Assembly (NCBI GenBank): GCA_035324355.1
Contig: DAOLBU010000002.1
Span: forward strand, 1-51,197
Length of the DNA: 51,197 nucleotides
From: Minisyncoccota bacterium
GTDB lineage: Bacteria > Patescibacteriota > Minisyncoccia > Phycocordibacterales > UBA918
Direction of reading: 5' to 3'
Shown here: positions 7,886 through 39,767 of the stretch, piece by piece
Position numbering within the stretch: position 1 is the stretch's first letter
Layout of the letters: the number at the start of each line of letters is the position of its first letter
Notes under the pieces: generated by a model
Databases searched by the model: none
Told to the model about the DNA's origin: nothing
What the model saw: the letters and a program-made list of their open reading frames with translations, nothing else
Translations under genes and position numbers: made by a program

Positions 7886-7936
7886 CGAGGGAAGATATCT
7901 TTTCTAGTGCCCGTGACAAGGTATACTAGTAGTGAT

Positions 7937-9271
7937 ATGTCTCGCAAAGATCTTTCTCGTTTTGATGCTTCTGACTATGAACGTTCGGCTTTAGAGCATG
8001 TGCTTACTAAAGAAGCTCAGGCTAAAGATGATACGGTGTATGTGTCAGTGGAAGAGGCTATTAAGGAAGATCCGGTATATGAACATCAGTCTAGTCGAGA
8101 TGTCACTCGAGTGCTGTTTATTTCCCAGGACGAATCCTTGCTAAACCCGACCGAACAGTCACTCGATGGCTACACAAACTTGGCCGATTTGTTTGATGAG
8201 GTGCATATATTAATTTTAAGACAAGGGATACCAGCTAAAAATCCTGTTCTTCGTTTAGCTAATAACATGTGGCTGTATATTGCTAGTGATAGCAAGTGGT
8301 GGGGAGCGCCTTTGGTGGGTAATACCGTTGTCACGGAGCAACTAGTTTTTGCTGAAGGGTTTCGTCCCGATATTATTGTGGCCCGTGATCCGTTTGAGAG
8401 TGCTGCTTTAGGACTATACCTGAGCGATAAATACGAAAGACCACTACAGATACATGTCCTTGAAGACTACAACACTACTGAATTTAAAAATGCCCACCCA
8501 CATCACTTTTGGCGCAGTCATCTACCAAACTTTACTTTAAAACGTACAGCCAGTATCAGAACTAATACTCGAGCGCTTTACGATTTTCTCTCTCATAAGT
8601 TTGATCCTTTAGACCTCGCCATTTTGCCACGTTTCAATAACTACGAAGCTTTAATGCATGAGCCCGTGACTTTAGATTTACATAATAAGTACAAAGCTTT
8701 TAAATTTGTGGTGCTTTACATTGGAAAATTGGATTACCATAGTCTTTTATACCAGGTGATTGACGCTGCTAGACACGGTCTTAAAAGTCCACACATTGGC
8801 TTGGTTGTTTTAGGTGAAGGACCAATCAAGTCGGAGTTTATTAAACGCAGTCAAATTTTAGGAGTGAGCCAACAAGTCGTCTTTGCACCTAATACCTTAA
8901 GTGAAACTGCTTTTCTCAAAGGTGCTGATGTCTTGGTGGTGCCCGAGACGGATGACGCTAGTGAGGAACTGGTGCTTAGAGCGGCTGCGGCGGGGATCCC
9001 CCCCATCTTGGCTAGAACGGCGAAACGAGAAGAACCCCTTTCTTATGGTGAGTCAGCTCTGCTTTGTACCCCTGGGGCCATTGATGAGTTTAGCCTTAAG
9101 TTAAATATGTTAATGAATGACCCGGTGCTACGTCGTCGTCTGGTAGCTGCTGGGCGAGAAATGATCAAGAGTCGCTTTCATGAGGATCCGGACACTTATC
9201 GTCGGGCATATCGCTCGAGTATCGAAAATGTTCTCTTTCTAAGTAGCGTTGATAATGAGTCATCGGAGTAA
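7937..9271 (+). CDS. GT-B fold glycosyltransferase (GT4-like)
   Basis: C-terminal GADVLVVPETDDASEELVLRAAAAGIPPILART resembles the GT4 donor-binding region. The start is ambiguous: GTG 7907 or ATG 7937. Confidence 0.65.
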   Translation: MSRKDLSRFDASDYERSALEHVLTKEAQAKDDTVYVSVEEAIKEDPVYEHQSSRDVTRVLFISQDESLLNPTEQSLDGYTNLADLFDEVHILILRQGIPAKNPVLRLANNMWLYIASDSKWWGAPLVGNTVVTEQLVFAEGFRPDIIVARDPFESAALGLYLSDKYERPLQIHVLEDYNTTEFKNAHPHHFWRSHLPNFTLKRTASIRTNTRALYDFLSHKFDPLDLAILPRFNNYEALMHEPVTLDLHNKYKAFKFVVLYIGKLDYHSLLYQVIDAARHGLKSPHIGLVVLGEGPIKSEFIKRSQILGVSQQVVFAPNTLSETAFLKGADVLVVPETDDASEELVLRAAAAGIPPILARTAKREEPLSYGESALLCTPGAIDEFSLKLNMLMNDPVLRRRLVAAGREMIKSRFHEDPDTYRRAYRSSIENVLFLSSVDNESSE

Positions 9272-9293
9272 TATTATTTAGTATCATTAGTTT

Positions 9294-10166
9294 ATGCGTG
9301 CTCAGCGAAAATTCGTTTCATTTTTTGGTTTAGGTAGTATTTTTGCTGCGCCACTTTTCTACTCCTATCTTAAAGCGCATCCCCAAATTTGTGTACCTCA
9401 AGAAGAGCTCGACTTTTTTTGCCAACCAAAACTATATGCCCAAGGAATAGAGTGGTATGAGGGCCAGTTTGGTAAGTGTGAGACTGGATTTATTTATGGA
9501 GAGTTATCGGGTTATTATCTACAAAATGCGCAGGCAGCATCTTTAATAGCTAGAACTTACCCTAATGCTAAGTTATTGGCTGTAATAGAAAATCCTTTGG
9601 TTAGCGTCAAGGTCGCTTATATCGAAGCCAAAAGAGCCGGCTTAATTTCCTCTAAAATTTCTCTGGCTTTATTTCTGAAGCAATATCCCGAAGTGTTAAG
9701 TTCAGCCCGTTATGGACAGCAATTAGTTCATTACTTTGGTTATTATTCACCAACTGATTTGTTGGTAGTGACAGCGGGGGACGTGAGAGAGGATCCCCTA
9801 AGTGTCATTAAAACGGCTTACGCTTATCTTGGTGTTAGTGATGATTTTGTCCCTGGCGAACTTAAGCACTTATTTCCCGAAGAAGAGATAGACCCTAAAA
9901 AACGTCCTGGTTTTATCAAGCGGGGTCTTAAGGCCATTAAGCAATCAGTGACCAATAAATACCATGCTATTTTGCAGCACTTCCATCCTAAAATAGTCCC
10001 CATTGAAACAGCTTCCATAGCAGCCAGGGCGATGACTCTCACGCCTGAGCTCGAGTCTTATCTGAAGGATTATTTCCGGTCGGACGTTACCGTTTTGTCT
10101 AGGTTGATGCACCGAGATTTAAATGCCGAGTGGGAGATACCAGCTAAAGATAAAAAGGTCCTTTAA
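9294..10166 (+). CDS. sulfotransferase-fold protein with degenerate PAPS-binding motifs
   Basis: The layout is like Sulfotransfer_1/3 families (EELDFF..GIEWYEGQF..AKLLAVIENP..LLVVTAGDVREDP..YLGV). However, the PKxGTT and RNPxxRxxS positions read GLGSIFAAP and ENPLVSVKVAY. Confidence 0.5.
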   Translation: MRAQRKFVSFFGLGSIFAAPLFYSYLKAHPQICVPQEELDFFCQPKLYAQGIEWYEGQFGKCETGFIYGELSGYYLQNAQAASLIARTYPNAKLLAVIENPLVSVKVAYIEAKRAGLISSKISLALFLKQYPEVLSSARYGQQLVHYFGYYSPTDLLVVTAGDVREDPLSVIKTAYAYLGVSDDFVPGELKHLFPEEEIDPKKRPGFIKRGLKAIKQSVTNKYHAILQHFHPKIVPIETASIAARAMTLTPELESYLKDYFRSDVTVLSRLMHRDLNAEWEIPAKDKKVL

Positions 10167-10286
10167 AGGCTCAAAATGGCCTAAATTACGATAATTAATC
10201 GAGGTTAGTACTTTGGCCTTTTGAACTAAGGTGAAATTTGGCTAAAAATGTCACTTTCACCTGGGTTAAGTGGTAATATTATAAGT

Positions 10287-11237
10287 ATGAAAATATTGGT
10301 AACTGGAGGTGCTGGCTATATCGGTTCAGCTTGCGTAGAGGCACTTTGTCATGAGGGATATCAGGTAGTAGTTTTTGATGATTTATCAACTGGTCAAGCT
10401 GATAAAATAAATTCTAACGTCATTTTGGAACAGGGCAGTATAATTGATTATTCAAATTTAAAAGCCGTTTGCGCTAGATATGATTTTGGTCTCGTCTTGC
10501 ACTTTGCGGCCAAAAAAGCAGTTGGCGAAAGTCAACTTGATCCAGCTTTATATTTTGAAACAAATGTTACGGGTACTTTAAATCTCTTAAAGGTGATGAG
10601 TGAGTATCAAATACCTAAAATTGTCTTTTCATCCACTGCTGTAGTTTATCGTCCACCTAAGGACACTAGGACATTAACTGAATCATCTCCACTCGGACCA
10701 CAAAATGTTTATGGTCAAACCAAGAGAATGGCTGAGGAGATGATTGTGGCTTTCGCTAAAGCAGGACTGATTTCAAACTACTCGATTCTACGCTACTTTA
10801 ATGTTGCCGGCGATGTTGGTTTAAATTATAGGGAGAGTAAAGCAATGAATATTTTTCCGATTATCGGTACTCAATTGCAAGCCAATTTACCGGTACAAAT
10901 TTTTGGTAGTGACTATGAAACAGCAGATGGAACCTGTGTACGCGACTACATACATTTACGGGACTTAGTGAAAGCTCACTTAGCGGCACTGAATCAAAAG
11001 GAAAGTGGTATTTATAATCTGGGGACCGGCAAAGGTTATTCGGTTAAAGAGCTTTTAGATCGATTTAATCAAATAGCCACACAAAAAATTCGAATTGAAG
11101 CTGCAGATCGTCGCTCGGGCGACTCACCTTTTCTGGTAGCTGACGCCACTTTGGCCAAACAAAAACTAGGTTGGCAACCAGAGGCTACTTTGGACGATAT
11201 TATTAAAGATACCCTTAGGGTCTTTAATCTCACTTAG
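10287..11237 (+). CDS. galE: UDP-glucose 4-epimerase
   Basis: MKILVTGGAGYIGS Rossmann start, SSTAVVY and YGQTK (SDR catalytic YxxxK), DGTCVRDYIH. ATG 10287 is preferred over 10248. Confidence 0.85.
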   Translation: MKILVTGGAGYIGSACVEALCHEGYQVVVFDDLSTGQADKINSNVILEQGSIIDYSNLKAVCARYDFGLVLHFAAKKAVGESQLDPALYFETNVTGTLNLLKVMSEYQIPKIVFSSTAVVYRPPKDTRTLTESSPLGPQNVYGQTKRMAEEMIVAFAKAGLISNYSILRYFNVAGDVGLNYRESKAMNIFPIIGTQLQANLPVQIFGSDYETADGTCVRDYIHLRDLVKAHLAALNQKESGIYNLGTGKGYSVKELLDRFNQIATQKIRIEAADRRSGDSPFLVADATLAKQKLGWQPEATLDDIIKDTLRVFNLT

Positions 11238-12009
11238 TTTTTATTAGGCGGTGTTTGAGAAGTCGTAGTTGACCCAAAAGTAGGGCAAAGAGGTAACCCG
11301 GATACCCTAAGTGTCTCTTTTTAATAATCGCTAATACAGCGGTGGACATTTTGCTCCCATGATCGTTTTCACTGGCATCATGGACCCGATGGGCAGTGGC
11401 GATTATGGGTAAATTTTTAAACTCGCCAAAGTGACCGAGTTGGAGAAAAAGATCTAAGTCCTCAGCTAGGGTCGGTTGGTAGCCTTGAGTTTTTTCTAAG
11501 GCAGCAGCGCGCATCAGTACTGCTGAATGCGTGAATTGATTACGGACTAATATTTTACGGCGAATAGCTTTGTCAGTAGTTTCATAAAAGTAATCTTTTA
11601 TTTTTTTTCCGTCTCGGTTTATCAGTCTAGTTTGGGTACCAACGACTGCCAATGAAGCATTTGTCTCAATGGACTCAACTTGCTTAGTGAGCTTCTCTTT
11701 ATCAATCCAGACATCATCACTGTCAATAACAGCGACATATTTACCTGTAACGTAACTAAGACTTTCTTTCCGTCTAGCAAACAATCCAGCATTCTTTTCG
11801 TGTTTAATATAGCGAAGGCGCTTGTCAGCGAAACCCTGAATAACATTTTCTGAGTTGTCAGTTGAACCGTCATCAATTATTACTAACTCAAAATTTTGGT
11901 AGGTCTGCGATAGGACACTAGAAATAGCCTCGGATAGAAAATGACCCCGGTTATAGGTCAACATGAGAACACTCACTAGAGGTTCTTTTACTTGGCTAAT
12001 TGTATCCAT
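11230..12009 (-). CDS. glycosyltransferase family 2
   Basis: VSVLMLTYNRGHFLSEAISSVLSQTYQNFELVIIDDGSTDNS and AVIDSDD (DxD). Its 3' end overlaps the 3' end of galE by 8 nt. Confidence 0.8.
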   Translation of the reverse strand: MDTISQVKEPLVSVLMLTYNRGHFLSEAISSVLSQTYQNFELVIIDDGSTDNSENVIQGFADKRLRYIKHEKNAGLFARRKESLSYVTGKYVAVIDSDDVWIDKEKLTKQVESIETNASLAVVGTQTRLINRDGKKIKDYFYETTDKAIRRKILVRNQFTHSAVLMRAAALEKTQGYQPTLAEDLDLFLQLGHFGEFKNLPIIATAHRVHDASENDHGSKMSTAVLAIIKKRHLGYPGYLFALLLGQLRLLKHRLIKTK

Positions 12010-12854
12010 GATGAGGGAAGTAGGTTGGGGTCATAATCAATGGTATCAAACCAGGGTGTTGGTGCAATGACTAACTTACTCGGATTTTGATTGAGCCAGG
12101 CACCCCACCAGCTGAAGCTACTATTAGCAATAATATTGTGCTGACATTGACTCATTAAGCTTAATTCTTCAGCATCCTTGAGTGATGGGTCAGAGACAAA
12201 AACAGTGTCTTCATCAAGCTCTAGATTATTTTTGACCCAAGCGATATCGTCCGAGAAGACAAAAAATTTCGCGTCTTTAACTTCGGTCTTGAGTTTGTCT
12301 ATTGCTCGTTGATAATAATCTTTAGTACATGGTCCAAATTGTTTTTTGACTATCAGATTACTTAAGTAGTCACCTCTTCGTATATGAAGTGAGACAGAAT
12401 TACTTAACTGCATTTGCTCAAGGATATTGCGACCATATTCCGGCAAGGGAACTTTGAGGGTAAATTCTTTCAGGAGAAGATCTCGGATGTTTTCAAAGTA
12501 AAGGGGTGATTGGAAGTATCCGTCTAGGTAGAGGTTTCCTTTCTGGTTTAAGTACTCTGCTTTGAATAAGTTAGTTTGGTCGCCCCAAAGGGAGTTTTTT
12601 ATTCTGCGCGTTATTTTAGTCAAAAGTCCCTCAGGCTTTTTAGAGGCAGCTATGTCTGCCAGCGAAGCGAGGTCTTGTTGGATATTAAAAAGCGCTAAGC
12701 TAAAGGGGCGATAGATATTTCCTATTCTCTTCGCTTGATCTAGTGAATGGATGTCTAGCTTTAAAATGTCATTATTTTTAATCGACAAAGCCCGACCAAA
12801 AGCATACTGAAACATTTGGTTACCCAGCCCGCCTTTGAGATTGATAATTATCAT
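11988..12854 (-). CDS. alpha-1,2-fucosyltransferase (GT11)
   Basis: N-terminal GGLGNQMFQYAFGRAL, HIRRGDY motif, and C-terminal SSFSWWGAWL. Confidence 0.85.
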   Translation of the reverse strand: MIIINLKGGLGNQMFQYAFGRALSIKNNDILKLDIHSLDQAKRIGNIYRPFSLALFNIQQDLASLADIAASKKPEGLLTKITRRIKNSLWGDQTNLFKAEYLNQKGNLYLDGYFQSPLYFENIRDLLLKEFTLKVPLPEYGRNILEQMQLSNSVSLHIRRGDYLSNLIVKKQFGPCTKDYYQRAIDKLKTEVKDAKFFVFSDDIAWVKNNLELDEDTVFVSDPSLKDAEELSLMSQCQHNIIANSSFSWWGAWLNQNPSKLVIAPTPWFDTIDYDPNLLPSSWIQLAK

Positions 12855-12925: not shown

Positions 12926-13105
12926 TTAACTACCTAAGTCGCCCTTTTCTTTTTGTATTTTTCTCCGAATATCAGTTATGACGTTATATTTTCTTGTAAG
13001 ATACTCTCTAAATTTTGGTAAGGATATTGACCAAGGGTTAGTGGGGTGCTTATTAGTAGCAAAATAAAGATTTTGACCATCTATATAAGCAATGTTTTTA
13101 AACAT
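12926..13105 (-). pseudogene. 59-aa N-terminal fragment of a NYN/LabA-like domain protein (below the ORF-track cutoff)
   Basis: My own translation gives MFKNIAYIDGQNLYFATNKH..FREYLTRKYNV, which resembles the start of NYN domains (..IDG.NLY..). It stops after about one third of a normal domain and overlaps the upstream stop by 8 nt. Confidence 0.3.
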
Positions 13106-13862
13106 GATTTAATATTAACATTGCAGGTTTAGTGAAGACAAACAAGCCACAGGCGTAAGTTTCGTTTTTTAGATCTTCTGGTTTGGCATTCTCCTTTACT
13201 CCTTCATTTCCATGCTCTGGGACAAAAGAGAATTCTTTTAAGGTAAGGGTAGGGAATAGTTCTACTACTTGCTCGTAGGTGTAAATTCGGTGAGCATTAA
13301 ATTGAATCATTCCCGTATTTCCAACAGGAGTCACAAAAAGCAAAGAACCGCCTGGGGCTAGAACTCTTGATAGCTCACTACAGGCTTTCTGGTCGCCGCC
13401 TGGATCAATAGGGTCGCCATAGCGCCCCAGACCAATGTGTTCGATAGTATGAAGACAGGACAGGGAAGGAAGGCTGTTGTCTGCAAAGTGTAAGTTAGTC
13501 AGGTCAGCATGCTCAGTCCTTAAGTTGCTGAGATGAAGTGGTGCCGGACGGTAATCATAAAAATCCACTGGAACAAAAGCAGAGACAATTCCGGGAAAGT
13601 AGAGACTTGAGGCAATGTCAGTATGACGTTCCGGATTTATTTCTTTTACCTTACGGGCAGCCCACGCCGTATGATAAACATAATGTCGGTCAAAACCAGT
13701 TAGTTTGGTCTTATCAAAAATTTGCGGGTAGAAAGTTCGCCAACTATAACTGAAGCGTGACTTGCTATCTTTACTTTTAAAATGCCAATAATCTACCAAC
13801 ACAAAAGGGGTAAAGAGAATATTTCGTACCGTTTTAACTAAAAATTTAATTTTACTTAACAT
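13098..13862 (-). CDS. class I SAM-dependent methyltransferase (DUF268-like)
   Basis: HTIEHIGLGRYGDPIDPGGD..LAPGGSLLFVTPVG. ATG at 13862 is preferred, because the 13976 start would overlap the upstream gene by 125 nt. Confidence 0.65.
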   Translation of the reverse strand: MLSKIKFLVKTVRNILFTPFVLVDYWHFKSKDSKSRFSYSWRTFYPQIFDKTKLTGFDRHYVYHTAWAARKVKEINPERHTDIASSLYFPGIVSAFVPVDFYDYRPAPLHLSNLRTEHADLTNLHFADNSLPSLSCLHTIEHIGLGRYGDPIDPGGDQKACSELSRVLAPGGSLLFVTPVGNTGMIQFNAHRIYTYEQVVELFPTLTLKEFSFVPEHGNEGVKENAKPEDLKNETYACGLFVFTKPAMLILNHV

Positions 13863-14763
13863 ACTTAGGCAGTTCGGTGTGATGGATGGCGACCAGATTC
13901 TGGTATTGATAACTAGCTTGTCGCATGTGGGGAATAGGGTCACCAGCTTGGTTAAGGGTAAAAAATTGGTAGCCATGACTAGCTAGAAGGTCTAAGCTGC
14001 CAGTAGTGTTATCTTTCCAAGCTTCGCCACCACCAACTTCGAGTAAAATAATTGGCCGATAATTAGCCAACGTTTTTCCCGCCTGACTTAAAATTTTGAC
14101 TTCAGTCCCTTCAGTATCTAGTTTGATCAAGCTCGGTTTCGTATTAGTTTTTTCACACCAGGCATCTAAGGTGTCTGTTTGTACTTCAATTAAAGAACCA
14201 ACATTCTTTAAAAACGCGTGTGGTTGTGCTTTGCTTGAATTAAAGACACCATGCTGAATGCCATAGTCGTGGAATTGAACGGTGCCCATGCTGTCAGCTA
14301 AGGCAATTTGTTCTAGCTGAACTTGAGGTAGGTGTCTGGTGTTTTGTTTTAGGACAGTAAAGGTGCTGGGTGTGGGTTCAAAGGCAGTAATTTTTGCAGC
14401 GGGAACTTTAATTTGGGTAAAGAGACTAGTGTAGTAACCAATGTTGCTGCCGACATCAAGTAGGTCGCCAGATTCTTTAAAATACTTAAGAAGAAAAAGT
14501 GTGACTTCACTATCATAGAAGCCAAGGAAGTAGACTGAGCCTATAGCGGAAGTTTCGTAAGCTTGTAGCTTGTCGCCCCAAATAGTCTGGGACTTAATTG
14601 GTATAGCAAAAGGGGTGAAGCGATTAAGCGCTACTAGGAGGTAAAAACAAAAGGCTTTGAGAGGATGTTTTTTAAAACGAGCACTGCGGATAATAGTTAG
14701 ATCAGCATCAGTTGCTTTGGCTTCAATTTTCTTAATAATATCCTCTCTTAACATAGTAGGCAT
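13852..14763 (-). CDS. FkbM-family methyltransferase
   Basis: DVGSNIGYYTSLF, FEPTPSTF, and the LDTEGTE-type C-terminal motif (KLDTEGTEVKIL). Confidence 0.8.
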   Translation of the reverse strand: MPTMLREDIIKKIEAKATDADLTIIRSARFKKHPLKAFCFYLLVALNRFTPFAIPIKSQTIWGDKLQAYETSAIGSVYFLGFYDSEVTLFLLKYFKESGDLLDVGSNIGYYTSLFTQIKVPAAKITAFEPTPSTFTVLKQNTRHLPQVQLEQIALADSMGTVQFHDYGIQHGVFNSSKAQPHAFLKNVGSLIEVQTDTLDAWCEKTNTKPSLIKLDTEGTEVKILSQAGKTLANYRPIILLEVGGGEAWKDNTTGSLDLLASHGYQFFTLNQAGDPIPHMRQASYQYQNLVAIHHTELPKYVK

Positions 14764-14767
14764 TATT

Positions 14768-15781
14768 TTAACGCATTATTTGCCGTACCGCATCTTTAGC
14801 TAAGGTTGTCAGTTTAAAAGCTAAGCTAGCATTTTTCCATGACTTTTTTGACTTGAGGTTAGTGTCTTTAATTTGTGACTCATTAGCTCTCAGTTTGGTC
14901 TGGTAAATATTTAAAAAAGCTTGTGCTTGCTTAGCTAAAGATAAGTTATTTTCGATATACACTCGGGGAGCAAAGGTGGGTAATGCTTCTAGAAATCTAG
15001 TTAACGATTTTTCTAAATCTTCGACTCTAGAAAATTTAAGACCACAAGTGTCATCAAAATAAGGGGCGGAGGTCACTGGAGTAAAATTAAGTTGTTCAGT
15101 TGAAAAATTTGCCTGACCACTTCCAGACCAGTCACCAAATTTTTCGATATCCCATATCAGGGCGGGTACATTCATTGCCAAAGCTTCAAGTAAAGCGATA
15201 CCTTGGCTTTCGGAACGTCCCACCCAAATTATTGCTTTGCTCCTATCTAATAGCTCTTGATAATTACTCTCTTGGTATTGACCATAAGTAATAACGGCAA
15301 ACTTCTCGCCATGGTTTTCTAAAGTCTGGCAAACTACATTAGTGTCGGCAGGGGAGCGTTGCTTGTTATAAACTAAAATTAAATCCTTCGCGGTGGTAGT
15401 TGGCGAAAATTTATTGGTATCAATTCCAACTGGCCAGACTGTACTATTCAGCCGCTGGGTACCAAAGGTTTCCCAAAACCTTTGTACCCAAGGAGCGGGA
15501 TGAAGCCAAATTAAAGGCAGGTTGTTCGGAATAGTAGGTAGCTCTTGAGGCAGGGTATGAATATTTGGCCCCGCCAAAATCAATGGTTTTCGGGGTAAAT
15601 CCAAGGCAGCTTTAAGAGCGATGGGATCATCATGGATCCAGATTAAGTCAGTGGCGTCAAGCGCAGCATTAGTGACATAGGGGCAGCCTATTTCATCCAG
15701 GCCTTTCATCAAATTGACAACCACCTTACGTGGCCCACGACTATGTGTGGATATTAACGATTTTGAAATAATGTTAAGCAT
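14768..15781 (-). CDS. GT-B fold glycosyltransferase (GT1/GT4-like)
   Basis: C-terminal IIWVGRSESQGIALLEALAMNVPALIWD matches the E..G..llEA...G.P donor-site pattern. Confidence 0.6.
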   Translation of the reverse strand: MLNIISKSLISTHSRGPRKVVVNLMKGLDEIGCPYVTNAALDATDLIWIHDDPIALKAALDLPRKPLILAGPNIHTLPQELPTIPNNLPLIWLHPAPWVQRFWETFGTQRLNSTVWPVGIDTNKFSPTTTAKDLILVYNKQRSPADTNVVCQTLENHGEKFAVITYGQYQESNYQELLDRSKAIIWVGRSESQGIALLEALAMNVPALIWDIEKFGDWSGSGQANFSTEQLNFTPVTSAPYFDDTCGLKFSRVEDLEKSLTRFLEALPTFAPRVYIENNLSLAKQAQAFLNIYQTKLRANESQIKDTNLKSKKSWKNASLAFKLTTLAKDAVRQIMR

Positions 15782-17786: not shown

Positions 17787-17787
17787 A

Positions 17788-24788: not shown

Positions 24789-25012
24789 AAGAAATATATT
24801 GAAAAAAGATTAATTTTAGGAAAATAAGGCCTTTTTAAAAGCCCCAGTGTCTTCAGAAGCCGTATTTTGATGAATAATGTAGACTATAAAATTTTTATAC
24901 TCAGATATTAAGAATTCAAAGTAGTGGTTTAAAGAAATAACTAATTTAAGGCTTGTTTACATATACTAACCATATATGTATACTTTTGACTAATGAGGAG
25001 GTTATATATCTT

Positions 25013-32379: not shown

Positions 32380-33399
32380 CTAATTATTGATAAGCTTGCG
32401 AAAATAAATTTTTACTGATATCAGTAAGTATATAATAGAACGAAGATTTTTTTTGATCTTATCTATAAAAAATCTTTGATAAGGATTACTCAACATTTGT
32501 TTACGTCGATTTTGATATATATTAAGTGCTAATTTAAGATCTTTTGCTAAAGATAAAGGTAAGTTTTTTAAATAAAATGGTTTAGCAATTCGTAAGGCGT
32601 CAAATTGAATCGTTTGTGAAAATTTTTCAATAAATTCTTTATGCTTAAAATAAAGAATTTCCTTATTTCTTTTCATTACCCTTGCAAGCTCAGGATGTGG
32701 GTTTTTCCTCATACCTCCCCAGTTGACGTCTGAAATAAAAGGAACAGCAAACACAAAATTCCGTAAGCCATTTTTAAGACATCGAATTGATAAATCGTGA
32801 TTGTCCCATGTATAGGGCGCAAGTTCCTCATCAAAATAGCCAACTGTATTTATCACGTGACTTGATATACATTCAGGACTTCGCACACTTACCATTTTTT
32901 CCACTACACTATATGATGGGATTGGTTGGTTTGTCATACCAACACCATACACACTTTCGGTAACATCCGTTTCTTCTATCTGTTTGAGCTTATTATTCAA
33001 TAGTATTGTAGCACCATGGCGAAACGTCACAGTTCCCACATTCTCAAAACCAAATTGGTCGTAGAGAGTAATGATATTTTTTTCAAGGTTGCTGTCTTGC
33101 AAAATCACATCATCTTGAAGAGTGATATTTAATACGTTTTCAGTTTGAGGAATAGAACGTAGAGCAATATTTAGGGATTTTATTTCATGAACATCAGGAG
33201 CGTATATTTTTACAATTTTTATGTTTTTGTATTCTTCTGCTAGGGCATCAATTATTTTTTCAGTATCATCAGTACATCCGTCTAGAACTGGATAAATAAC
33301 ACTATCTTCTCTACAACTTTTTATTACACCCAGCAATACCTCTTTAATAAGATCTTGTTTATTGTGGATGGTAATTATGTAATTAAAGTGGTAATTCAT
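32380..33399 (-). CDS. glycosyltransferase family 2-like
   Basis: YIITIHNKQDLIKEVL..YPVLDGCTDDTEKII and LQDDV (DxD-like). Confidence 0.65.
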   Translation of the reverse strand: MNYHFNYIITIHNKQDLIKEVLLGVIKSCREDSVIYPVLDGCTDDTEKIIDALAEEYKNIKIVKIYAPDVHEIKSLNIALRSIPQTENVLNITLQDDVILQDSNLEKNIITLYDQFGFENVGTVTFRHGATILLNNKLKQIEETDVTESVYGVGMTNQPIPSYSVVEKMVSVRSPECISSHVINTVGYFDEELAPYTWDNHDLSIRCLKNGLRNFVFAVPFISDVNWGGMRKNPHPELARVMKRNKEILYFKHKEFIEKFSQTIQFDALRIAKPFYLKNLPLSLAKDLKLALNIYQNRRKQMLSNPYQRFFIDKIKKNLRSIIYLLISVKIYFRKLINN

Positions 33400-33401: not shown

Positions 33402-34580
33402 CTATGAAGCTAAAAGTGATTTGATCAGGTTAATATCTTCACTTGTTAATTCGGGGTAGTTACCACAATAAAAAGCATTTGCATGTAAATAGTCAGTCTT
33501 GGGGAGTTTATATGATTCCTTTACATATTTGGTGTAAAAGGGCTGTTTTGTTATATTTCCTGCAATCATAGGACGTACTTCAACACCTGCTTCAATAAAA
33601 CGTCTAACATAGAAGTCCTTTTTATCAGAAGTTTTGCATATGAAGGGTATAGCAAATGTTGATAGTTTCTTTATGTGGCTTTTATTCGGAACGATAAAAT
33701 CTCGGTTTTCTTTTAGAGCAGCTTCAACTTCTATGTAGTTTTGGTACCTCTTATCTATGTTTGCATCAAGATACTCAAGCTGTGTGAGGCCTAAAAACCC
33801 CGTAATCTCTGTCGGCCTTAAATTATATGCCAAATCGTAAAATGTATATTTAGATTGAAATTCGCTTTCAACGTTGTATTTTTTGCGTAGTTGCTCTTGT
33901 TTGTTACAAGATAAGTTTCTGTCCCAACCATTTGCTCTGACTATTGTAATCATGTCAGATAGTTCAGTGTCATTTGTACAAATCATGCCACCCTCAATAG
34001 TCGACATGTGATGTGCAACAAAGAAAGAAAAAGTTGATGCAACACCAAAGTTACCAGTTCTACCTTCGACTAATTCTGTGCCCAGGGACTCACAGTTGTC
34101 TTCAATCAATATTATATTTCGTTCTTCGCAGATATCTTTGATTCCGGCCAGGTCATCAGTAAAGCCAAGAGCATTGGTAATAAAGAAAGCATCTAGGTGT
34201 GTTTCTTCAATTCGCACTTGTAGGGTTTGACGAGAACTATTTAGCGTTTCAATTTCACAGTCAATTGGAACAGGAACCATATTGAGCTGTATGATAGGCA
34301 TTACATTTGTTGACCAGGTAAGTGCTGAAAAGCCAATACGGTCACCATTTTTCAGACGTCCCAAATTTTTTAAGGCTTGGAGAAGGGCTAAATTTGCTGA
34401 GCCGCCGCTATTGAATAGTGATGCGTGTTTAGTACGTTGCTTTTCCGCAAAGGCTTTTTCAAAAGAAAGGCATTGCTCACCCATAGATAATTTCTCAGCA
34501 TTAATGATGAATTCAGCCAGAGCCCTTTTTGTTGTTGCTTCTTCTATAAAGGCAAACTTCATGAGTGGAATAGTGTACAT
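33402..34580 (-). CDS. ColD-like NDP-4-keto-6-deoxyhexose 3-dehydratase (DegT fold, His replaces the PLP lysine)
   Basis: NSGGSANLALLQAL, LIEDNCESLG, STFSFFVAHHMSTIEGG and RANGWDRNL. It lies in the same-strand run as gmd and fcl. Confidence 0.72.
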   Translation of the reverse strand: MYTIPLMKFAFIEEATTKRALAEFIINAEKLSMGEQCLSFEKAFAEKQRTKHASLFNSGGSANLALLQALKNLGRLKNGDRIGFSALTWSTNVMPIIQLNMVPVPIDCEIETLNSSRQTLQVRIEETHLDAFFITNALGFTDDLAGIKDICEERNIILIEDNCESLGTELVEGRTGNFGVASTFSFFVAHHMSTIEGGMICTNDTELSDMITIVRANGWDRNLSCNKQEQLRKKYNVESEFQSKYTFYDLAYNLRPTEITGFLGLTQLEYLDANIDKRYQNYIEVEAALKENRDFIVPNKSHIKKLSTFAIPFICKTSDKKDFYVRRFIEAGVEVRPMIAGNITKQPFYTKYVKESYKLPKTDYLHANAFYCGNYPELTSEDINLIKSLLAS

Positions 34581-34611: not shown

Positions 34612-35538
34612 TTATATTTTATTGAGATACCAATCATAGGTTTTTTGTATACCTTCTTTTAATTCAATACTGTGATGCCAGCCAAGATCATGGATTTTTG
34701 AAACATCAAGCAATTTGCGGGGAGTTCCATCTGGTTTACTTTTATCCCACTCCAATGTTCCTTTATAGTCTACAATGTTCGCAATGGTTTCAGCTAGCTC
34801 TTTGATAGTAACATCTTCACCAGTACCAATATTTACAATCTCGGACTCATCATAAGTTTCCATCAAATGTAAACAAGCAGTAGCGAGGTCGTCAACATAA
34901 AGAAATTCACGCATAGGAGTGCCTGTGCCCCATGTCGTTACGCTTGGCGCATTGTTAATTTTTGCTTCATGAAAGCGTCTTATGAAAGCCGGTAATACGT
35001 GTGCTGTTTCGAGATTGAAATTATCATTTGGACCATACAGGTTAGTTGGCATCACAGAAATAAAATTTGTGTCATATTGTTTATTGTAAGCTTGGCACAT
35101 TTTTAGTCCTGCTATTTTTGCCAGTGCGTATGCTTCATTACTTGTCTCCAAAAGGCTAGTTAAAAGGGACTCTTCCTTAATGGGTTGAGGGCAGAGTTTT
35201 GGATAGATGCAAGAACTGCCTAAAAATAATAATTTGGTAACCTGATTTAAATATGAATTGTGAATAATATTATTTTGGATTTGGAGATTATGGTAGATGA
35301 AGTTAGCCGGAGAGGTCTTGTTGGCCATGATTCCACCGACTTTGGCAGCGGCCAAGAAAACATACTCGGGTTTTTCTTGAGCGAAAAAATACGCAACAGC
35401 TTTTTGGTTAAGAAGATCTAGTTCGTCACGAGTGCGGGTGATGATGTTCTCAAAACCACTCTTCTCAAGTGTTCTTACTAAAGCTGAACCTACTAGCCCT
35501 CGATGTCCCGCAACGTATATTTTAGCTGTTTTTTCCAT
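34612..35538 (-). CDS. fcl: GDP-L-fucose synthase / GDP-4-keto-6-deoxymannose epimerase-reductase (Fcl, or the ColC homologue)
   Basis: [31 protein letters not shown] and [12 protein letters not shown]. Confidence 0.85.
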
Positions 35539-35543
35539 TGTAA

Positions 35544-36602
35544 TTAAAAATAAAAGTGGCCGTTATTCTTTTTCATCAACTCAAAGTCTGCTCTGGTCAT
35601 CTGTTTGGCCAGATCGGCAAATTTTATTTTAGCTTCCCAGCCAAGTTTAGCTTTTGCTTTACTAGGGTCACCGAGTAAAAGGTCTACTTCAGTGGGACGA
35701 AAGTATTGCGGGTTGATTTTAATAATTGTTTTTTTAGTTTTTTTGTCGACACCTATTTCATCGACTCCCTTACCGGTCCACTCCAATTCAATATCTAGTT
35801 CTGCACAGGCAGCTTCGATAAATTCTCGGACACTATGTGTCTCCCCGGTAGCTATAACAAAATCATCCGGCTTCTCTTGTTGGAGCATTAGCCACATTGC
35901 TTCGACATACTCTTTGGCGTAACCCCAATCACGCTTGGCGTCGAGGTTGCCTAGTTCAAGTACTTCTTGTTGTCCCAATTTAATTTTGGAGAGACCAATG
36001 GTGATTTTTCGCGTTACAAAATTATAACCTCGGCGTTCACTTTCGTGGTTGAAGAGGATGCCATTGCAAGCAAACATGTCGTAAGCTTCACGATAATTTT
36101 TAATGATCCAAAAACTATAAAGTTTGGCGACACCATAAGGGCTACGGGGATAGAAAGGGGTTGTTTCAGTTTGTGGAGTTTCTTGAACCAAGCCGTAGAG
36201 TTCGGAGGTCGAGGCTTGGTAGAACTTAGTCCTTCCTCCAAGGCCTTGTTTGCGAATAGCTTCGAGGATAGTAAGTGAACCAAGAGCATCTGTTTCGGCG
36301 GTCAGCTCAGGTAGGTCAAAAGAAATGCGCACATGGCTCTGGGCCGCAAGGTTATAGACCTCGTCAGGTTCAATGTCTTTTATTAGAGCTGAGATGTTAG
36401 TAGTATCTGTTAGGTCGCCGTGGTGGAGAAAGAGCGTTTTATTATATATTTCTGGGTTGTTGAATAGGTGTTCAATGCGAGCGGTGCGGATGGAACTAGA
36501 TGGTCTAACAACTCCATGCACCTCATAGCCTTTTTCCAGCAGTAGTTCTGCTAAGTATGATCCGTCTTGTCCGGTGATTCCTGTAATTAAAGCTTTTTTC
36601 AT
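35544..36602 (-). CDS. gmd: GDP-mannose 4,6-dehydratase
   Basis: [44 protein letters not shown] and [11 protein letters not shown] 36602 is preferred over 36611. Confidence 0.92.
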
Positions 36603-36737
36603 AAAAGGCATTCTACCATTTAAATTTCACTAACAATAATTTTATATAACTGAAGCTTTGAGTAATTTGTTACATCTCCTTTGAGGACTTGTGACTAAAT
36701 GCAACTTTTTTTACTGCAGTTAAGTATTATTCTATAT

Positions 36738-37454
36738 ATGAATAAAAAAACCATTGTGATCTCTGGGGGGTTTGATCCCATCCATCCTGGGCATATTGCT
36801 ATGATTGAATCTGCCCGAGAATACGGAGACGTACATATTGTAGTTAATAGTGATGATTGGTTGGTGAGGAAAAAAGGATTTTTCTTTCAACCTTGGACCG
36901 ATAGAAAAAAGATCCTAGAAGCCTACACACCCCATGTTCATGCGGTCGATGATACTGACGGTACTGTCTGCGAGGCTCTGAGGCGTATTAAGCCGGATTA
37001 TTTTGGTAATGGGGGAGATAGAACTAATAAAAATACCCCAGAGCTTGACGTGTGTGCTGATTTAGGTATTACTCCGGTCTTTGAGCTTGGGGGCGGTAAG
37101 TACAGTTCGAGTTCAACAATTAATGGGCGACAAAGAGTGCCCACTAGATGGGGTTCTTATGATGTGCTTTTAGATATGCCACAGTTGAAGGTAAAAATAC
37201 TTAATATTGAAGCTGGAAAAAAGTTGTCGCTACAACGACATGAAAAGCGAAGTGAGTTCTTTTTTACACCCCATGGGGAAGTGAGAGTGAATTTGCCGGG
37301 AGTGTGGCATGCGCCACATGCACCGGAAAATGAAGCACTGACTATCCTGGAGGTACAGGTAGGGGCTTCTGAAGAGGGTGATATTGATCGAATTTCTGAA
37401 GATTCGGAGGATTTTGAGGAAGAGCTAGGAAAGAAGATCCACTTGAATAAATAG
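36738..37454 (+). CDS. fusion protein: HIGH-motif cytidylyltransferase-fold nucleotidyltransferase + ManC-type (mannose-6-P isomerase type II) cupin
   Basis: N-terminal part: VISGGFDPIHPGHIAMIE (HxGH). C-terminal part: RWGSYDVLLD..VKILNIEAGKKLSLQRHEKRSEFFF..ILEVQVG..GDIDRISE, which resembles the C-terminus of ManC/CpsB. ATG 36738 is preferred. Confidence 0.65.
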   Translation: MNKKTIVISGGFDPIHPGHIAMIESAREYGDVHIVVNSDDWLVRKKGFFFQPWTDRKKILEAYTPHVHAVDDTDGTVCEALRRIKPDYFGNGGDRTNKNTPELDVCADLGITPVFELGGGKYSSSSTINGRQRVPTRWGSYDVLLDMPQLKVKILNIEAGKKLSLQRHEKRSEFFFTPHGEVRVNLPGVWHAPHAPENEALTILEVQVGASEEGDIDRISEDSEDFEEELGKKIHLNK

Positions 37455-37559
37455 GCTACGTCTACCGGATCTCGTCTGCTTAATGCCGTGTTGACTTCTC
37501 GCTGTGATAGCAAGACGGATGTTTTTACCCTTCGTCTAGAGTATGGTCACTTTTGAAAT

Positions 37560-39767
37560 ATGGTATATTGGCGCCATATGCAAGATTTTTTAAAAGTGGT
37601 GGTGTATGGAGGATTGTTTGCGGTGCCGTTTTTAACATTATATGTAGCTAATGATTATTTCTTTCCCTTTATTACCGGAAAGAATTTTGCTTTTAGAATA
37701 ATTGTCGAAGTTGTGTTTGCTGCTTGGGCGGTCCTGTGTCTTCTTGACGTTAAGTATCGCCCTAAATTTTCTTGGATCTTATCAAGCTTCAGTGCTCTGC
37801 TTATTGTGATGTTCTTTGCCAATCTCTTTGGTCAGCATCCTGAGTCTAGTTTCTGGAGCAATTTTGAGCGAATGGATGGCTATGTCACGCTCGTGCACAT
37901 TTTCCTTTACGGTGTTGTCTTGGGTAGCGTGATGACTACGAAACAGTCTTGGAGCTGGTATCTACACGCTACTTTATTAGCTGCTTTTATCACTGCCCTG
38001 TATGGGGTGGCGCAGTACTCGGGTATGGTAGAAGGGTTTGAAAATAGACGAATGGAAAGTTTCCTCGGTAATGCCGCCTACCTATCTATCTACATGCTCT
38101 TCCATATCTTCATTGCTTTTTGGATGTTTGTGGAGAGTAAGGTGACACTTCATCGTGTGGTATATATTTTGTTAGCCGTACTTTTCACATACGCTTTAAT
38201 GTACTCTGGAACTCGTGGTACGGTATTAGGTTTTGGAGTGGGACTAGGTGCGATGGTCACGTACATTATGTTTTTTGGAGCAAAGTATCGTGAGTTTCGT
38301 AAGTATGCTATTGGCGCCTTTATCTTTTTGGCTTTAGGAGCTGGGACTTTAATCTTAGGCAAAGAAGCAGATTTTATCCAAAAAAACGGCAGTTTGTCTA
38401 GAATTGCCAACATTAACCTCTCAGAAGACTTAAAGGTGCGGGGGACCATTTGGGGGATGGCCTGGGAAGGTGTCAAAGAGCGACCAGTCTTAGGCTGGGG
38501 TCAGGGTAACTTTAATTACGTCTTTAACGAACAGTATGACCCGTTCTTGTTCAATCAAGAGCAGTGGTTTGACCGAGCACACAGTATTGTCTTTGATTGG
38601 TTGATTGCTGGCGGTTTCTTGGGCTTGATAGCGTATCTCGGGATATTTGTGGCTTGTGGTTATTATCTTTTCCTCCAGCCCTTACTAAAGAAAGACGATG
38701 CGACCTTTACTGTTTTAGAGCGGGGAGTGCTGTTGGGTATTTTAGTGGGGTACTTCACCCACAACCTAGTGGTGTTTGACAACATCGTAAGTTACATCTT
38801 CTTTGGTCTAATATTGGCTCTAATCCATAGTCGTGTAGCTCAGGTGATGCCGGCAGTGCAAAAATTTAAAGTAGACCAGAATCTAGTAAATCAATTCATC
38901 GCCCCGGTAGCTGCTGTTTTGGTGATAGCTATTATCTACACTACTCAAGTACCTGGCATGTTGGCTGCTGGCGATCTCATTGATGGTTACCAAGCTCAAG
39001 ATCCAAAAGTACGCCTTGAGGCCTTTAAGCGGGCAATAAATCGGGACTCTTTTGCTAGGCAGGAAGTAGTAGAGCAAATTGCTCAGCAGGCGATGAATAT
39101 TGCTCGTGATACGCGGGTAGAAGAAAGTGTGAGGCAAGAGTATGTTGAATTAGCTATTAAACAACTTGATGAACTGGCTGTATATAAGCCAGGAGATGCT
39201 CGTATCCATGTTTTTATGGGGACATTTTACCGAGCGGTCGGTGACTTAAATAAAGCTGCTGAGCAAATGCAAATTGCCCATGAACTTTCACCTTTGAAAC
39301 AATCAATTATTTCACAGCAAGCCATCATTGCTTACAGTCAAGGTAATATCGAACAAGCCCGAGATATGTTTGCTGAAGCTTTGGCTCTCGACGATCGAAA
39401 TACCGAGGCGAGAGAATATTATGCGGCCATGCTCTTCCTAAATAACCAAGTTGAGGAAGCAAAAGCTTTGGTGGTAGATGAAGCAACTCTTAAAGGTTTT
39501 GCCGCTAATGACTTCTTGCTTAGTGCGGTCAATCAAGTAAAGGAATATCCTTTTATGATTGAACTTTATAAAATAAAAATTGAACAAAATCCAGAAAATG
39601 AACAAAGTTGGGCATCACTAGCGTTCCTCTACAGCGCGGTCGGAAATAAGGAAGCGGCGGTCGCTACTTTACGCGAGGCGGCTATCAAGCGACCCACATT
39701 TGCTAAGAAAGCTAATTGTATCGCTAATAACATTGAGGCTGACAGGAATCCAGAAGAAGGTTGCTAA
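37560..39767 (+). CDS. O-antigen ligase/polymerase-like (Wzy_C domain) polytopic membrane protein with a C-terminal TPR domain
   Basis: About 10 or more TM helices, YSGTRGTVLGFGVG and RAHSIVFDWLIAGGFLGLIAYL (conserved His region). The C-terminal ~280 aa is TPR-like. An alternative start exists at ATG 37578. Confidence 0.7.
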   Translation: MVYWRHMQDFLKVVVYGGLFAVPFLTLYVANDYFFPFITGKNFAFRIIVEVVFAAWAVLCLLDVKYRPKFSWILSSFSALLIVMFFANLFGQHPESSFWSNFERMDGYVTLVHIFLYGVVLGSVMTTKQSWSWYLHATLLAAFITALYGVAQYSGMVEGFENRRMESFLGNAAYLSIYMLFHIFIAFWMFVESKVTLHRVVYILLAVLFTYALMYSGTRGTVLGFGVGLGAMVTYIMFFGAKYREFRKYAIGAFIFLALGAGTLILGKEADFIQKNGSLSRIANINLSEDLKVRGTIWGMAWEGVKERPVLGWGQGNFNYVFNEQYDPFLFNQEQWFDRAHSIVFDWLIAGGFLGLIAYLGIFVACGYYLFLQPLLKKDDATFTVLERGVLLGILVGYFTHNLVVFDNIVSYIFFGLILALIHSRVAQVMPAVQKFKVDQNLVNQFIAPVAAVLVIAIIYTTQVPGMLAAGDLIDGYQAQDPKVRLEAFKRAINRDSFARQEVVEQIAQQAMNIARDTRVEESVRQEYVELAIKQLDELAVYKPGDARIHVFMGTFYRAVGDLNKAAEQMQIAHELSPLKQSIISQQAIIAYSQGNIEQARDMFAEALALDDRNTEAREYYAAMLFLNNQVEEAKALVVDEATLKGFAANDFLLSAVNQVKEYPFMIELYKIKIEQNPENEQSWASLAFLYSAVGNKEAAVATLREAAIKRPTFAKKANCIANNIEADRNPEEGC

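Follow-up and report, generated by a model that had tools for sequence, protein, structure and literature searches.

A probable replacement-type surface-glycan island between yvcK and murB in a predicted Paceibacteria genome

The window analysed here is a 51,197-nucleotide stretch of DNA (contig DAOLBU010000002.1, positions 1 to 51,197 of the forward strand), in which 45 main open reading frames (ORFs) were listed and numbered g01 to g45. Our subject is the interval between a yvcK/CofD-family gene on the left (g07, 6884..7885, +; Pfam CofD 287.9 bits) and murB on the right (g38, 39786..40811, +; FAD_binding_4 and MurB_C, in synteny with g37 and secA). This interval takes up 62% of the window and holds 30 ORFs in a row, g08 to g37, of which 24 gave clear glycan-type matches when Pfam and NCBIfam profile scans were run on every window ORF. 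Four more (g09, g15, g18 and g24) had sub-threshold matches alone, from a relaxed Pfam search, and g29 matched nothing in Pfam or NCBIfam, the relaxed Pfam search included. The glycosyltransferase (GT) and sugar-nucleotide calls of an initial annotation of this DNA were upheld nearly throughout by these scans. Set against its relatives (loci and contigs compared with the window, labelled L0xx), the segment 11238-37533 is, we conclude with high confidence, a replacement-type hypervariable surface-glycan island.

The limits of this segment are given by a sister contig, Ga0163147_10002818 (L091 plus L084, 24.1 kb), which carries both flanks. Its genes match those of the window at 67% (g06), 72% (yvcK), 85% (g08), 80% (g09) and 76% (GalE) identity on the left and at 82% (g37) and 77% (murB) on the right, and in a blastn comparison DNA homology ends at 11238, the galE stop codon, to restart at 37534. 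The variable segment between these points measures 26.3 kb in the window versus about 15 kb of different genes in the sister, namely Gly_transf_sug, two GT2, GT4, four FkbM, two GT-D, GT25, another methyltransferase, Wzx, an epimerase and RhuM/Fic, with neither a cytidine diphosphate (CDP) nor a guanosine diphosphate (GDP) sugar branch. L083 and L084, for their part, are 95.7% identical across 4 kb of RhuM/Fic-g37-murB and unrelated farther upstream, a replacement at about species level within the sister lineage. In both of these loci a RhuM/Fic-domain gene lies directly 5' of the g37 homologue, at the island edge (split in L083, 1558-2463; intact in L084, 8903-9901).

The conserved frame of the site has two depths. 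A g37-murB-secA block, found in 44 to 52 loci, is the class-wide backbone, and at the family or genus level the backbone extends to yvcK-g08-g09 with galE on the left and to fcl-gmd-g36 on the right, the latter at 75-93% identity in L016, L083 and L085-L087. The yvcK gene is 72% identical in L091 and 52-53% identical in L011 and L021. Among the ORFs of the interval, two glycan-related ones right after yvcK belong to this left-hand backbone and not to the variable segment: g08, a GT4 gene (7907..9271, +; Glycos_transf_1 51.2 bits), and g09, which is conserved and weakly sulfotransferase-like (9294..10166, +; Sulfotransfer_3 19.6 bits, below cut-off). Homologues of g08 lie near g09 and g37 in L011, L013 and L021; g09 abuts g37 directly in L011 and L013, as does g08 in L021, and this arrangement is an 'empty site'.

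What fills the site differs from one lineage to the next. When the ORFs of 13 close relatives were each compared with the 12 other loci, those upstream of g37 were shared, within the corresponding region, with 1.15 of the 12 on average, versus 10.8 of 12 for the g37-to-secA block and 7.5 of 12 downstream. A Pfam census of 71 upstream ORFs returned methyltransferases (13), Wzx (6), GT4 (5), FkbM (4) and Gmd or epimerases (4), as well as 3'-phosphoadenosine 5'-phosphosulfate (PAPS) synthesis, sulfotransferases, acyltransferases and UDP-glucose dehydrogenase, with two each. The islands of relatives at this site are of one functional class and differ in their genes. Some of them carry ATP-sulfurylase, adenosine 5'-phosphosulfate (APS) kinase and sulfotransferases, from which it follows that some Paceibacteria would sulfate their glycans; near the window's g09 there are no PAPS genes. 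Hypervariability, raised initially for the whole yvcK-murB interval, is therefore borne out for 11238-37533 but not for g08, g09, galE, g37 and g36, which are conserved, gmd and fcl being semi-conserved. That the interval is flanked by core genes holds as first described, with yvcK on the left and murB-secA-obg-gatB on the right conserved in relatives.

There are no hallmarks of mobility. No integrase or transposase was matched by Pfam in any window ORF, tRNA and Rfam scans of the window detected nothing, and a repeat search found no att-like or direct repeats flanking the island; the repeats that were detected lie only inside the 3'-terminal surface-protein gene and a Lys/Ala-rich ORF, both described below. 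A promoter/terminator scan of 20.5-38 kb gave a number of sites no higher than in shuffled sequence. Windowed GC content, a check proposed together with the initial annotation, shows two low-GC blocks, with 32-37% in g16-g21 and g27-g33 versus 42-45% in the flanks and core. The composition of the island is thus a mosaic. The g08-g37 region comprises four transcription blocks on alternating strands and at least four compositional modules. Modules that recur in other loci are g25-g28, GT11 plus DUF268, and gmd-fcl-g36.

It is because of the fixed site, the swapped content of the same function, the lack of mobility genes and the mosaic composition that we read the locus as a replacement flexible genomic island. 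With islands of that kind (PMC4033161) it shares a fixed position between conserved flanks, differing genes of one functional class, the absence of integrase or att hallmarks, and atypical composition; they include islands for O-chains, exopolysaccharides and glycosylation in aquatic prokaryotes (Lopez-Perez et al. 2014, PMC4033161). It differs from them in its predicted host, a bacterium of the candidate phyla radiation (CPR) with about 1 Mb of genome and no lipopolysaccharide (LPS), in its right anchor, a gene for a WaaL-fold enzyme with tetratricopeptide repeats (TPR) beside murB, and in that the window's own population carries one island in two samples. Exchange of island content among CPR lineages would proceed via recombination in the conserved flanks.

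The host assignment relies on core genes outside the island. In a SecA scan of a collection with one genome per species, 79 of the best 80 loci were metagenome-assembled genomes of Patescibacteria (Kaiserbacteria, Nomurabacteria, Paceibacterota, Parcubacteria and similar), and SecA identity reached 83% in that collection and 90-91% in metagenome contigs. The gene order g37-murB-secA-holin-like-obg-gatB is common to about 40 of these best 80 loci, and Obg and GatB are 86% and 83% identical in L083 and 75% and 69% in L016. By SecA, Obg, GatB and gene order, the contig is assigned to the Patescibacteria (CPR), class Paceibacteria. The initial annotation had supposed a reduced CPR-like host, with which all of these markers and the synteny agree, and the marker-gene comparison did not lead to an ordinary diderm with LPS genes. 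The largest relative contig is 997 kb, and the host genome probably amounts to about 1 Mb. To our knowledge, CPR bacteria have neither LPS nor an outer membrane.

Much of the gene content could suggest a different origin, since Gmd/Fcl, RfbF/RfbG/RfbH-like and YerE-like enzymes, Wzx and an 'O-antigen ligase' are typical of Gram-negative O-antigen loci, and the GC content of the island is below that of its flanks. The locus would then be an ordinary diderm O-antigen cluster, or the contig would be mis-assembled or mis-binned. However, an independent assembly from another sample matches window positions 1-20166 at 99.96%, and because it reproduces the left flank together with island sequence, the contig is not chimeric; a further independent contig matches 39683-50811 at 99.99%. 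Both flanks are Patescibacteria by identity and synteny, relatives have like islands at the same site, the nearest named homologues of g27, g36 and g37 come from Patescibacteria, and the window contains no lipid A/core gene. We rejected the classical diderm O-antigen cluster and the assembly chimera on SecA placement, synteny and the independent assembly, and this explanation, already largely refuted, is extremely improbable.

Two membrane proteins stand out within the interval. One is the Wzx-type MOP flippase g30 (30411..31706, -; Polysacc_synt 98.2 bits, about 12 hydrophobic segments), with Wzx genes also in the islands of L043, L084, L085 and L088. The other is g37 (37560..39767, +), a Wzy_C membrane enzyme (66.1 bits, cut-off 31.7) with a C-terminal TPR region. 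They are the sole flippase and the sole Wzy_C protein, and the island has no other polytopic membrane protein; the domain matches agree with how both had been annotated. The g37 family has at least 4794 homologues of about 730 amino acids (aa) with one architecture, and records from Nomurabacteria and Paceibacterota call them 'O-antigen ligase family protein'. Across its 120 best-scoring homologues identity to g37 is 59-87%, and the islands beside those examined are unrelated.

An AlphaFold2 (AF2) model of g37, built on 31 homologues, has a mean predicted local distance difference test score (pLDDT) of 83. In this model the membrane domain resembles WaaL (7tpg_B; TM-score 0.65 over 455 columns), and the C-terminal third matches TPR superhelices such as those of OGT and SPINDLY. 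Residues R219, R281, R294, R308 and H341 are invariant in the 31 sequences, as are C720 and C735. In an unaligned comparison, R219, R294 and H341 resemble what we take to be the essential residues of Escherichia coli WaaL, R215, R288 and H337. Going by its 13 predicted helices and its charge distribution, g37 would have both the TPR domain and the large loop (267-342) on the outer side of the membrane, and the two invariant C-terminal cysteines fit with such a placement of the TPR domain. Since g37 is conserved while the island changes, it probably has a relaxed glycan specificity like that of WaaL or PglL. It shares with WaaL and the O-oligosaccharyltransferases PglL and WsaB the Wzy_C domain, a fold match to WaaL 7tpg, and conservation of the enzyme while the glycan genes vary, as expected of relaxed specificity, and its invariant Arg and His residues in or near the large loop may correspond to theirs; it differs from WaaL in a 13th helix, in a predicted extracytoplasmic TPR domain of about 255 residues with two invariant Cys, and in belonging to a phylum that is not known to have lipid A-core. 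Given its conservation beside unrelated islands, g37 is probably a terminal transferase with relaxed specificity (WaaL/PglL/WsaB type) and not a Wzy polymerase tied to one repeat unit.

The polymerase alternative deserves attention all the same, because Pfam Wzy_C also occurs in some O-antigen polymerases and Wzx is present. In that case the island would produce a repeat-unit heteropolysaccharide, be it a capsule, an exopolysaccharide or a secondary cell-wall polymer, which is released or attached by a LytR-CpsA-Psr (LCP) enzyme from elsewhere. L085 bears on this point, having at 10001-14450 two WaaL-fold/TPR paralogues in tandem, which share 80% and 74% identity with g37; the pair suggests two acceptors or a division of labour, and one copy could also be a ligase and the other a polymerase. 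As a rule, a Wzy polymerase is specific for its repeat unit, varies greatly in sequence and has its gene inside the variable cluster, whereas g37 keeps the above identity among its best-scoring homologues beside unrelated islands. Moreover, the best structural match of its predicted model is the ligase WaaL, and the window has no Wzz/PCP or LCP gene. We therefore regard a polymerase role for g37 as unlikely.

No match to Bac_transf, Glycos_transf_4, Wzz, ABC-transporter, LCP or lipid A/core families was found in any window ORF, which accords with the initial observation that lipid A/core, Wzz, ABC exporter and initiating phosphoglycosyl transferase genes were missing. ManB and ManC are likewise not in the window, nor are the genes for GDP-mannose and glucose-1-phosphate supply. 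The priming phosphoglycosyl transferase and the supply of these two precursors would have to be encoded outside the window.

The island would draw on sugars carried by uridine diphosphate (UDP), GDP and CDP. The UDP branch consists of the UDP-glucose 4-epimerase GalE (g10, 10248..11237, +; TIGR01179 323.6 bits, cut-off 262.3), which is conserved at genus level. On the GDP side, g35 (35544..36611, -; TIGR01472 559 bits, cut-off 415) is the GDP-mannose 4,6-dehydratase Gmd, part of the semi-conserved right-hand module and 83-91% identical in L016, L083, L085, L086 and L087, and g34 (34612..35538, -; NF047922 500.5 bits, cut-off 500) is the GDP-L-fucose synthase Fcl, 75-77% identical in L016, L085 and L087. 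Together they are predicted to yield GDP-L-fucose, fitting the two fucosyltransferase families, GT11 and GT10, of the island; Fcl could additionally act as a ColC-type enzyme. The DegT-family protein g33 (33402..34580, -) matches ColD (PDB 2gms/3gr9, 178 bits) and can be read as a ColD-like GDP-4-keto-6-deoxymannose 3-dehydratase, because in its 'AHH', aligned with ColD 'SHH', the catalytic His188 is retained in place of the Schiff-base Lys of aminotransferases. We excluded an aminotransferase for that reason, and the likely product is a colitose-type GDP-3,6-dideoxyhexose. Thus the UDP carrier and the GDP-deoxyhexose branch of the initial annotation are both confirmed, by NCBIfam matches above equivalog cut-offs and by the ColD-like g33.

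Next to this module, g36 (36699..37454, +; CTP_transf_like 36.8 and MannoseP_isomer 37 bits) is an HxGH nucleotidyltransferase, with an HPGH motif, fused to a phosphomannose isomerase-type cupin. This is a core gene of Paceibacteria: among at least 3080 homologues, the best 120 are 75-93% identical across the class, exceeding the conservation of SecA, and the gene usually has gmd and the WaaL-TPR gene as neighbours. Its product could supply the activation of GDP-mannose (or another sugar-1-phosphate) that these reduced genomes seem to miss.

The CDP branch centres on a compact string of four genes: the CDP-glucose 4,6-dehydratase g25 (RfbG/DdhB; 24953..26083, +; TIGR02622 440.3 bits, cut-off 278.45), the glucose-1-phosphate cytidylyltransferase g26 (RfbF/DdhA; 26080..26850, +; TIGR02623 405.7 bits, cut-off 300.25), the thiamine diphosphate (ThDP)-dependent carboligase g27 (26854..28602, +; TPP_enzyme N, M and C domains), which is acetolactate synthase (ALS)-like and putatively YerE-like, and g28 (28599..29528, +; Epimerase 57.4 bits), a short-chain dehydrogenase/reductase (SDR) with no PDB relative by sequence and a candidate YerF-like side-chain or 4-keto reductase. 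A biosynthetic acetolactate synthase was ruled out for g27, which is below every ALS equivalog cut-off (best 444.5 versus 538), has no small subunit or ilv genes nearby and lies in a conserved operon with CDP-sugar genes. Its best PDB match is 5ahk (382.6 bits, versus 286.8 for the next ALS), which we take to be the Pseudomonas protegens YerE homologue PpYerE; a literature check gave no confirmation of this. Most of the named g27 homologues belong to Pacebacteria, Parcubacteria or the 'Patescibacteria group'. L087 and L088 also contain the string g25-g26-g27-g28, there too upstream of a Wzy_C gene, with the SDR (42% and 39% identical to g28) always 3' of the ThDP enzyme.

A 3-dehydratase for this branch is offered by g20 (19630..20853, -), a DegT-family protein that matches E1 (PDB 3bcx, 256 bits) and, under the cut-off, the RfbH model (357 bits versus 423), and that is therefore annotated as an E1/RfbH-like NDP-4-keto-6-deoxyhexose 3-dehydratase. 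Its catalytic His aligns with E1 H220, and an aminotransferase was ruled out since, as in E1, this His replaces the Schiff-base Lys. Opposite the E1 stretch 'CYCAPGCDNTC' (C251, C253, C261) g20 has no Cys, so that three of the four E1 iron-sulfur (Fe-S) cysteines are missing. We take these cysteines, together with C193, to bind in E1 the [2Fe-2S] cluster fed electrons by E3, and none of the window ORFs is an E3 (DdhD/AscD)-like or ferredoxin-reductase-type gene. Hence g20 probably works by a ColD-like, E3-independent mechanism.

With g20 nearby, g25-g28 have the YerE/YerF arrangement, and this gene context is stronger evidence for a YerE-like g27 than its PDB match. In such pathways a 2-keto acid such as pyruvate is joined to C-4 of CDP-4-keto-3,6-dideoxyglucose, and the product is then reduced (PMC9306805, PMC12247030). 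The window shares with the pathways to yersiniose A, erwiniose and caryophyllose (PMC9306805, PMC12247030) an ALS-like ThDP enzyme encoded between the CDP-glucose genes, which it directly follows, and an NAD(P)H reductase, as well as a 3-dehydratase to supply the CDP-4-keto-3,6-dideoxy acceptor, here predicted from the genes. It differs from them in the lack of E3, in its CPR host and in the addition of two genes to the block, a 3-C-methyltransferase and a GFO-family oxidoreductase. The former, g22 (22011..23294, +; Methyltransf_14 141.2 and Methyltransf_13 67.7 bits), is an NDP-sugar 3-C-methyltransferase of the TylC3/TcaB9 type, with 254.6 bits to the D-mycarose 3-C-methyltransferase PDB 4rv9 and 193 bits to TcaB9; the latter, g23 (23295..24314, +; GFO_IDH_MocA 76.9 bits), is a candidate sugar ketoreductase or dehydrogenase. 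The idea that g22 and g23 lead to a second, 3-C-methyl product is speculative. The CDP-deoxyhexose branch of the initial annotation thus survives in its CDP-sugar enzymes but not as a plain dideoxyhexose route, given the YerE/YerF-like cassette, the lost Fe-S cysteines and the lack of E3.

Two small genes accompany the branch. The HD-domain protein g21 (21130..21795, -; HD 23.6 bits) has a 54% identical homologue beside the CDP cassette of L087 (5225-5896), an HD-domain phosphohydrolase thus accompanying the CDP-sugar/ThDP cassette; we know of no role for such an enzyme in YerE-type pathways. Tentatively, g24 (24342..24761, +; NUDIX 19.1 bits, below cut-off) is a small Nudix-like protein, and Nudix genes occupy the equivalent place in L085, L087 and L088.

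The distribution of these cassettes is informative in its own right. The homologue of g20 in L088 (5446-6672) is 86% identical, yet g37 there is only 34% identical, a contrast that clearly points to a recent transfer of the gene between CPR lineages that are far apart. Because of this disparity, and because the named homologues of g27 are mostly from CPR, the g20 and g25-g28 cassettes appear to circulate horizontally within the CPR.

Compared with the O-antigen clusters of Yersinia pseudotuberculosis, Salmonella and E. coli O55/O111, the locus has in common Gmd, Fcl, ColD-like, RfbF, RfbG and RfbH/E1-like enzymes, Wzx and multiple GTs. In contrast to them, the window has no in-cluster Wzy, Wzz, WecA/WbaP, E3 (DdhD/AscD) or lipid A-core acceptor, and its E1-like g20 is without the Fe-S cysteines.

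The remaining genes would build and decorate the glycan. Seven GTs are firm, where about ten had first been counted: besides g08, these are g11 (GT2; 11230..12009, -; Glycos_transf_2 115.7 bits), g12 (GT11, the alpha-1,2-fucosyltransferase family; 11988..12854, -; Glyco_transf_11 131.5 bits), g16 (GT10, the alpha-1,3/4-fucosyltransferase family, with a GC content of 33%; 15793..16842, -; FucT_N 96.9 and Glyco_transf_10 68.1 bits), g17 (GT-D fold, SP_1767 family; 16851..17807, -; GT-D 279.7 bits and TIGR03728 302.7, cut-off 290.75), g19 (GT2; 18626..19576, -; Glycos_transf_2 87.4 bits) and, marginally, the GT2-like g32 (32380..33399, -; Glycos_transf_2 24.4 bits, cut-off 23.3, in the N-terminal part only). 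The three others are tentative: g15 is possibly GT4-like (14768..15781, -; Glycos_transf_1 22.8 bits, cut-off 26.4), g18 possibly GT2-like (17788..18636, -; Glycos_transf_2 19.5 bits, below cut-off; AglJ 27.9 bits, N-terminus only), and the profile-less g29 (29551..30414, -) is a protein with a C-terminal hydrophobic helix, whose single-sequence AF2 model (pLDDT 41) was unusable.

All four methyltransferases named at the outset were matched, the C-methyltransferase g22 by Methyltransf_13/14 and three others by their own families. The DUF268-type S-adenosylmethionine (SAM) methyltransferase g13 (13098..13976, -; 49.1 bits) is 53% identical to its L088 homologue and probably starts at 13862 (254 aa), since it is called as 254 aa in L089; a GT11 plus DUF268 pair also lies beside the Wzy_C gene in L088. 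Gene g14 (13852..14763, -; Methyltransf_21 67.8 bits, TIGR01444 95 bits) encodes an FkbM-family methyltransferase, and g31 (31709..32368, -; Methyltransf_24 58.1 bits) a class I SAM methyltransferase.

This assortment raises the question whether one system or several occupy the interval. The alternating transcription blocks, the compositional modules and the independent recurrence elsewhere of g25-g28, GT11 plus DUF268 and gmd-fcl-g36 would all suit a mosaic of at least two independent glycosylation systems gathered at a recombination hot spot, such as a cytoplasmic GT-D/GT4 set for protein glycosylation together with a Wzx-dependent, lipid-linked glycan, and GT-D enzymes are known to glycosylate serine-rich adhesins without a carrier. 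Nevertheless, there is one flippase and one Wzy_C enzyme, the window has neither a SecA2/Asp accessory secretion gene nor a serine-rich substrate, and GT-D genes also occur in the comparable Wzx-containing islands of L084 and L088. We consider such a composite of separate systems quite improbable.

We favor instead, as a likely reading of the whole, a hypervariable glycan island that feeds a Wzx/g37 route to a non-LPS acceptor, and from the enzyme identities we infer the following steps. Cytoplasmic enzymes would provide UDP-Gal/Glc (GalE), GDP-L-fucose (Gmd, Fcl) and a colitose-type GDP-3,6-dideoxyhexose (g33). CDP-4-keto-6-deoxyglucose, made by g26 and g25, would be turned into one or two CDP-sugars: a yersiniose-type 3,6-dideoxy-4-C-branched hexose via the Fe-S-less, E3-independent g20, g27 and the YerF-like g28, and possibly a 3-C-methyl CDP-sugar via g22 and g23. 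Seven to ten GTs, including the GT10 and GT11 fucosyltransferases, would then build a large oligosaccharide, which g13, g14 and g31 may O-methylate. It would be assembled on polyprenyl phosphate as the carrier, the gene for the priming enzyme lying elsewhere than in the window; once flipped by Wzx (g30), the product would be transferred en bloc by g37 to a non-LPS acceptor, candidates for which are the cell wall, a lipid and a surface protein such as a pilin or S-layer protein. For the route of export and attachment specifically, we put the chances only somewhat above even. Because there is neither a polymerase nor a chain-length regulator, and because there are seven to ten GTs, a single large methyl-capped oligosaccharide is more likely than a polymer.

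Several points weigh against this reading. The presumed lipid-linked en bloc route hangs on two proteins, Wzx and g37, and an initiating transferase, a polymerase, a chain-length regulator, an LCP ligase and an acceptor were not identifiable in the window, which also has no genes for the supply of GDP-mannose and glucose-1-phosphate. What GT-D enzymes are best known for is the glycosylation of proteins in the cytoplasm without a carrier. The sugar products are predicted from homology and gene context, and the host's presumed lack of LPS and outer membrane follows from its taxonomy, the genes seen being those of this window. Finally, the window's own island is unchanged in two samples, strain-level replacement being seen between L083 and L084 only.

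A system of similar layout is the general protein O-glycosylation cluster of Tannerella forsythia, which reportedly likewise combines Wzx, many GTs and methyltransferases in a species-specific cluster and encodes one large complex oligosaccharide on the S-layer and other surface proteins (PMC6120980). T. forsythia belongs to a different phylum and is a diderm, and for the present locus a protein is only one of the candidate acceptors.

Some features of the flanks can be added. To the left of yvcK, within 3296-6860 (+), g05 encodes a VirD4/TrwB-like coupling ATPase that is 55-68% conserved in distant relatives and lies about 1.6 kb from g37 in L041, and g06 a protein with Lamin-tail (LTD) and PKD domains and hydrophobic N- and C-termini, possibly a surface protein and a candidate glycan acceptor. 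On the right, between murB and secA, a highly basic, Lys/Ala-rich ORF of 57 aa with a histone-H1-like look (40956-41129, +) begins KKAAKKVAKKTAKK...; a 101-aa ORF with FFAAFF repeats on the opposite strand (40847-41152, -) is probably its antisense shadow. A perfect 24-bp inverted repeat with a 4-nt loop (44123-44174), between the holin-like gene and obg, is likely a transcription terminator or regulatory hairpin. The gene that runs off the end of the window (48518-51197, +) is the start of a secreted repeat protein with a signal-peptide-like N-terminus and 'VTYGNGLFVAV' and 'TSPDGINWT' units; at its full length on the source contig the protein has 1036 aa and a C-terminal Peptidase_S74 (tail-spike chaperone) domain, it is also found in L083, and it is a candidate surface fibre.

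Replacement glycan islands are well described in free-living bacteria and archaea, and all component families of the present one are known. CPR/Patescibacteria are ultra-small and mostly episymbiotic, and their cell-surface chemistry is almost unknown. In the literature searched we found no description of CPR glycan islands, O-antigen-like loci or fucosylation, or of anchoring beside a conserved WaaL-fold/TPR gene next to murB; a paper on Saccharibacteria pili calls glycosylation processes in that group 'unexplored', and another (PMC13622651) concerns surface genes of the host, not of the epibiont. Two features could be real variants of known systems: a transferase of WaaL-TPR type in a phylum without LPS, and an E1-like dehydratase that lacks the Fe-S cysteines and would work without E3.

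What the locus means for the organism can be stated at several levels. A genome of probably about 1 Mb devotes some 26 kb to a complex, exchangeable glycan, and the exchange site is anchored by a conserved WaaL-like/TPR enzyme, which makes g37 a testable candidate for the terminal transferase. The sugars to expect are fucose, 3,6-dideoxyhexoses, a yersiniose-like branched sugar and O-methyl sugars. The locus is usable as a strain-typing marker in Paceibacteria, and g20 and g25-g28 might supply new ThDP carboligases as well as a CDP-sugar 3-dehydratase that does without E3. A role of the glycan in partner or host recognition, as first proposed, is possible, but phage evasion, the usual account of replacement islands, is at least as likely.

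Beyond this single locus, we tentatively suggest, as a possibility that may well prove wrong, that Paceibacteria, and perhaps all CPR, might have a class-wide, LPS-free equivalent of the O-antigen, in which the WaaL-fold/TPR enzyme attaches oligosaccharides that are strain-specific and quickly swapped and the resulting coat sets host recognition or phage susceptibility, with an uncharacterised Fe-S-free, E3-independent CDP-hexose 3-dehydratase among the enzymes in this genome. If this is true, a WaaL-fold/TPR enzyme with relaxed donor specificity would decorate pili, S-layer or cell wall in thousands of genomes, and the glycan of this genome would be fucosylated and O-methylated, with dideoxy and C-branched sugars. 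A glycan coat, and not proteins alone, would then set the recognition of host cells by these epibionts and/or their susceptibility to phages.

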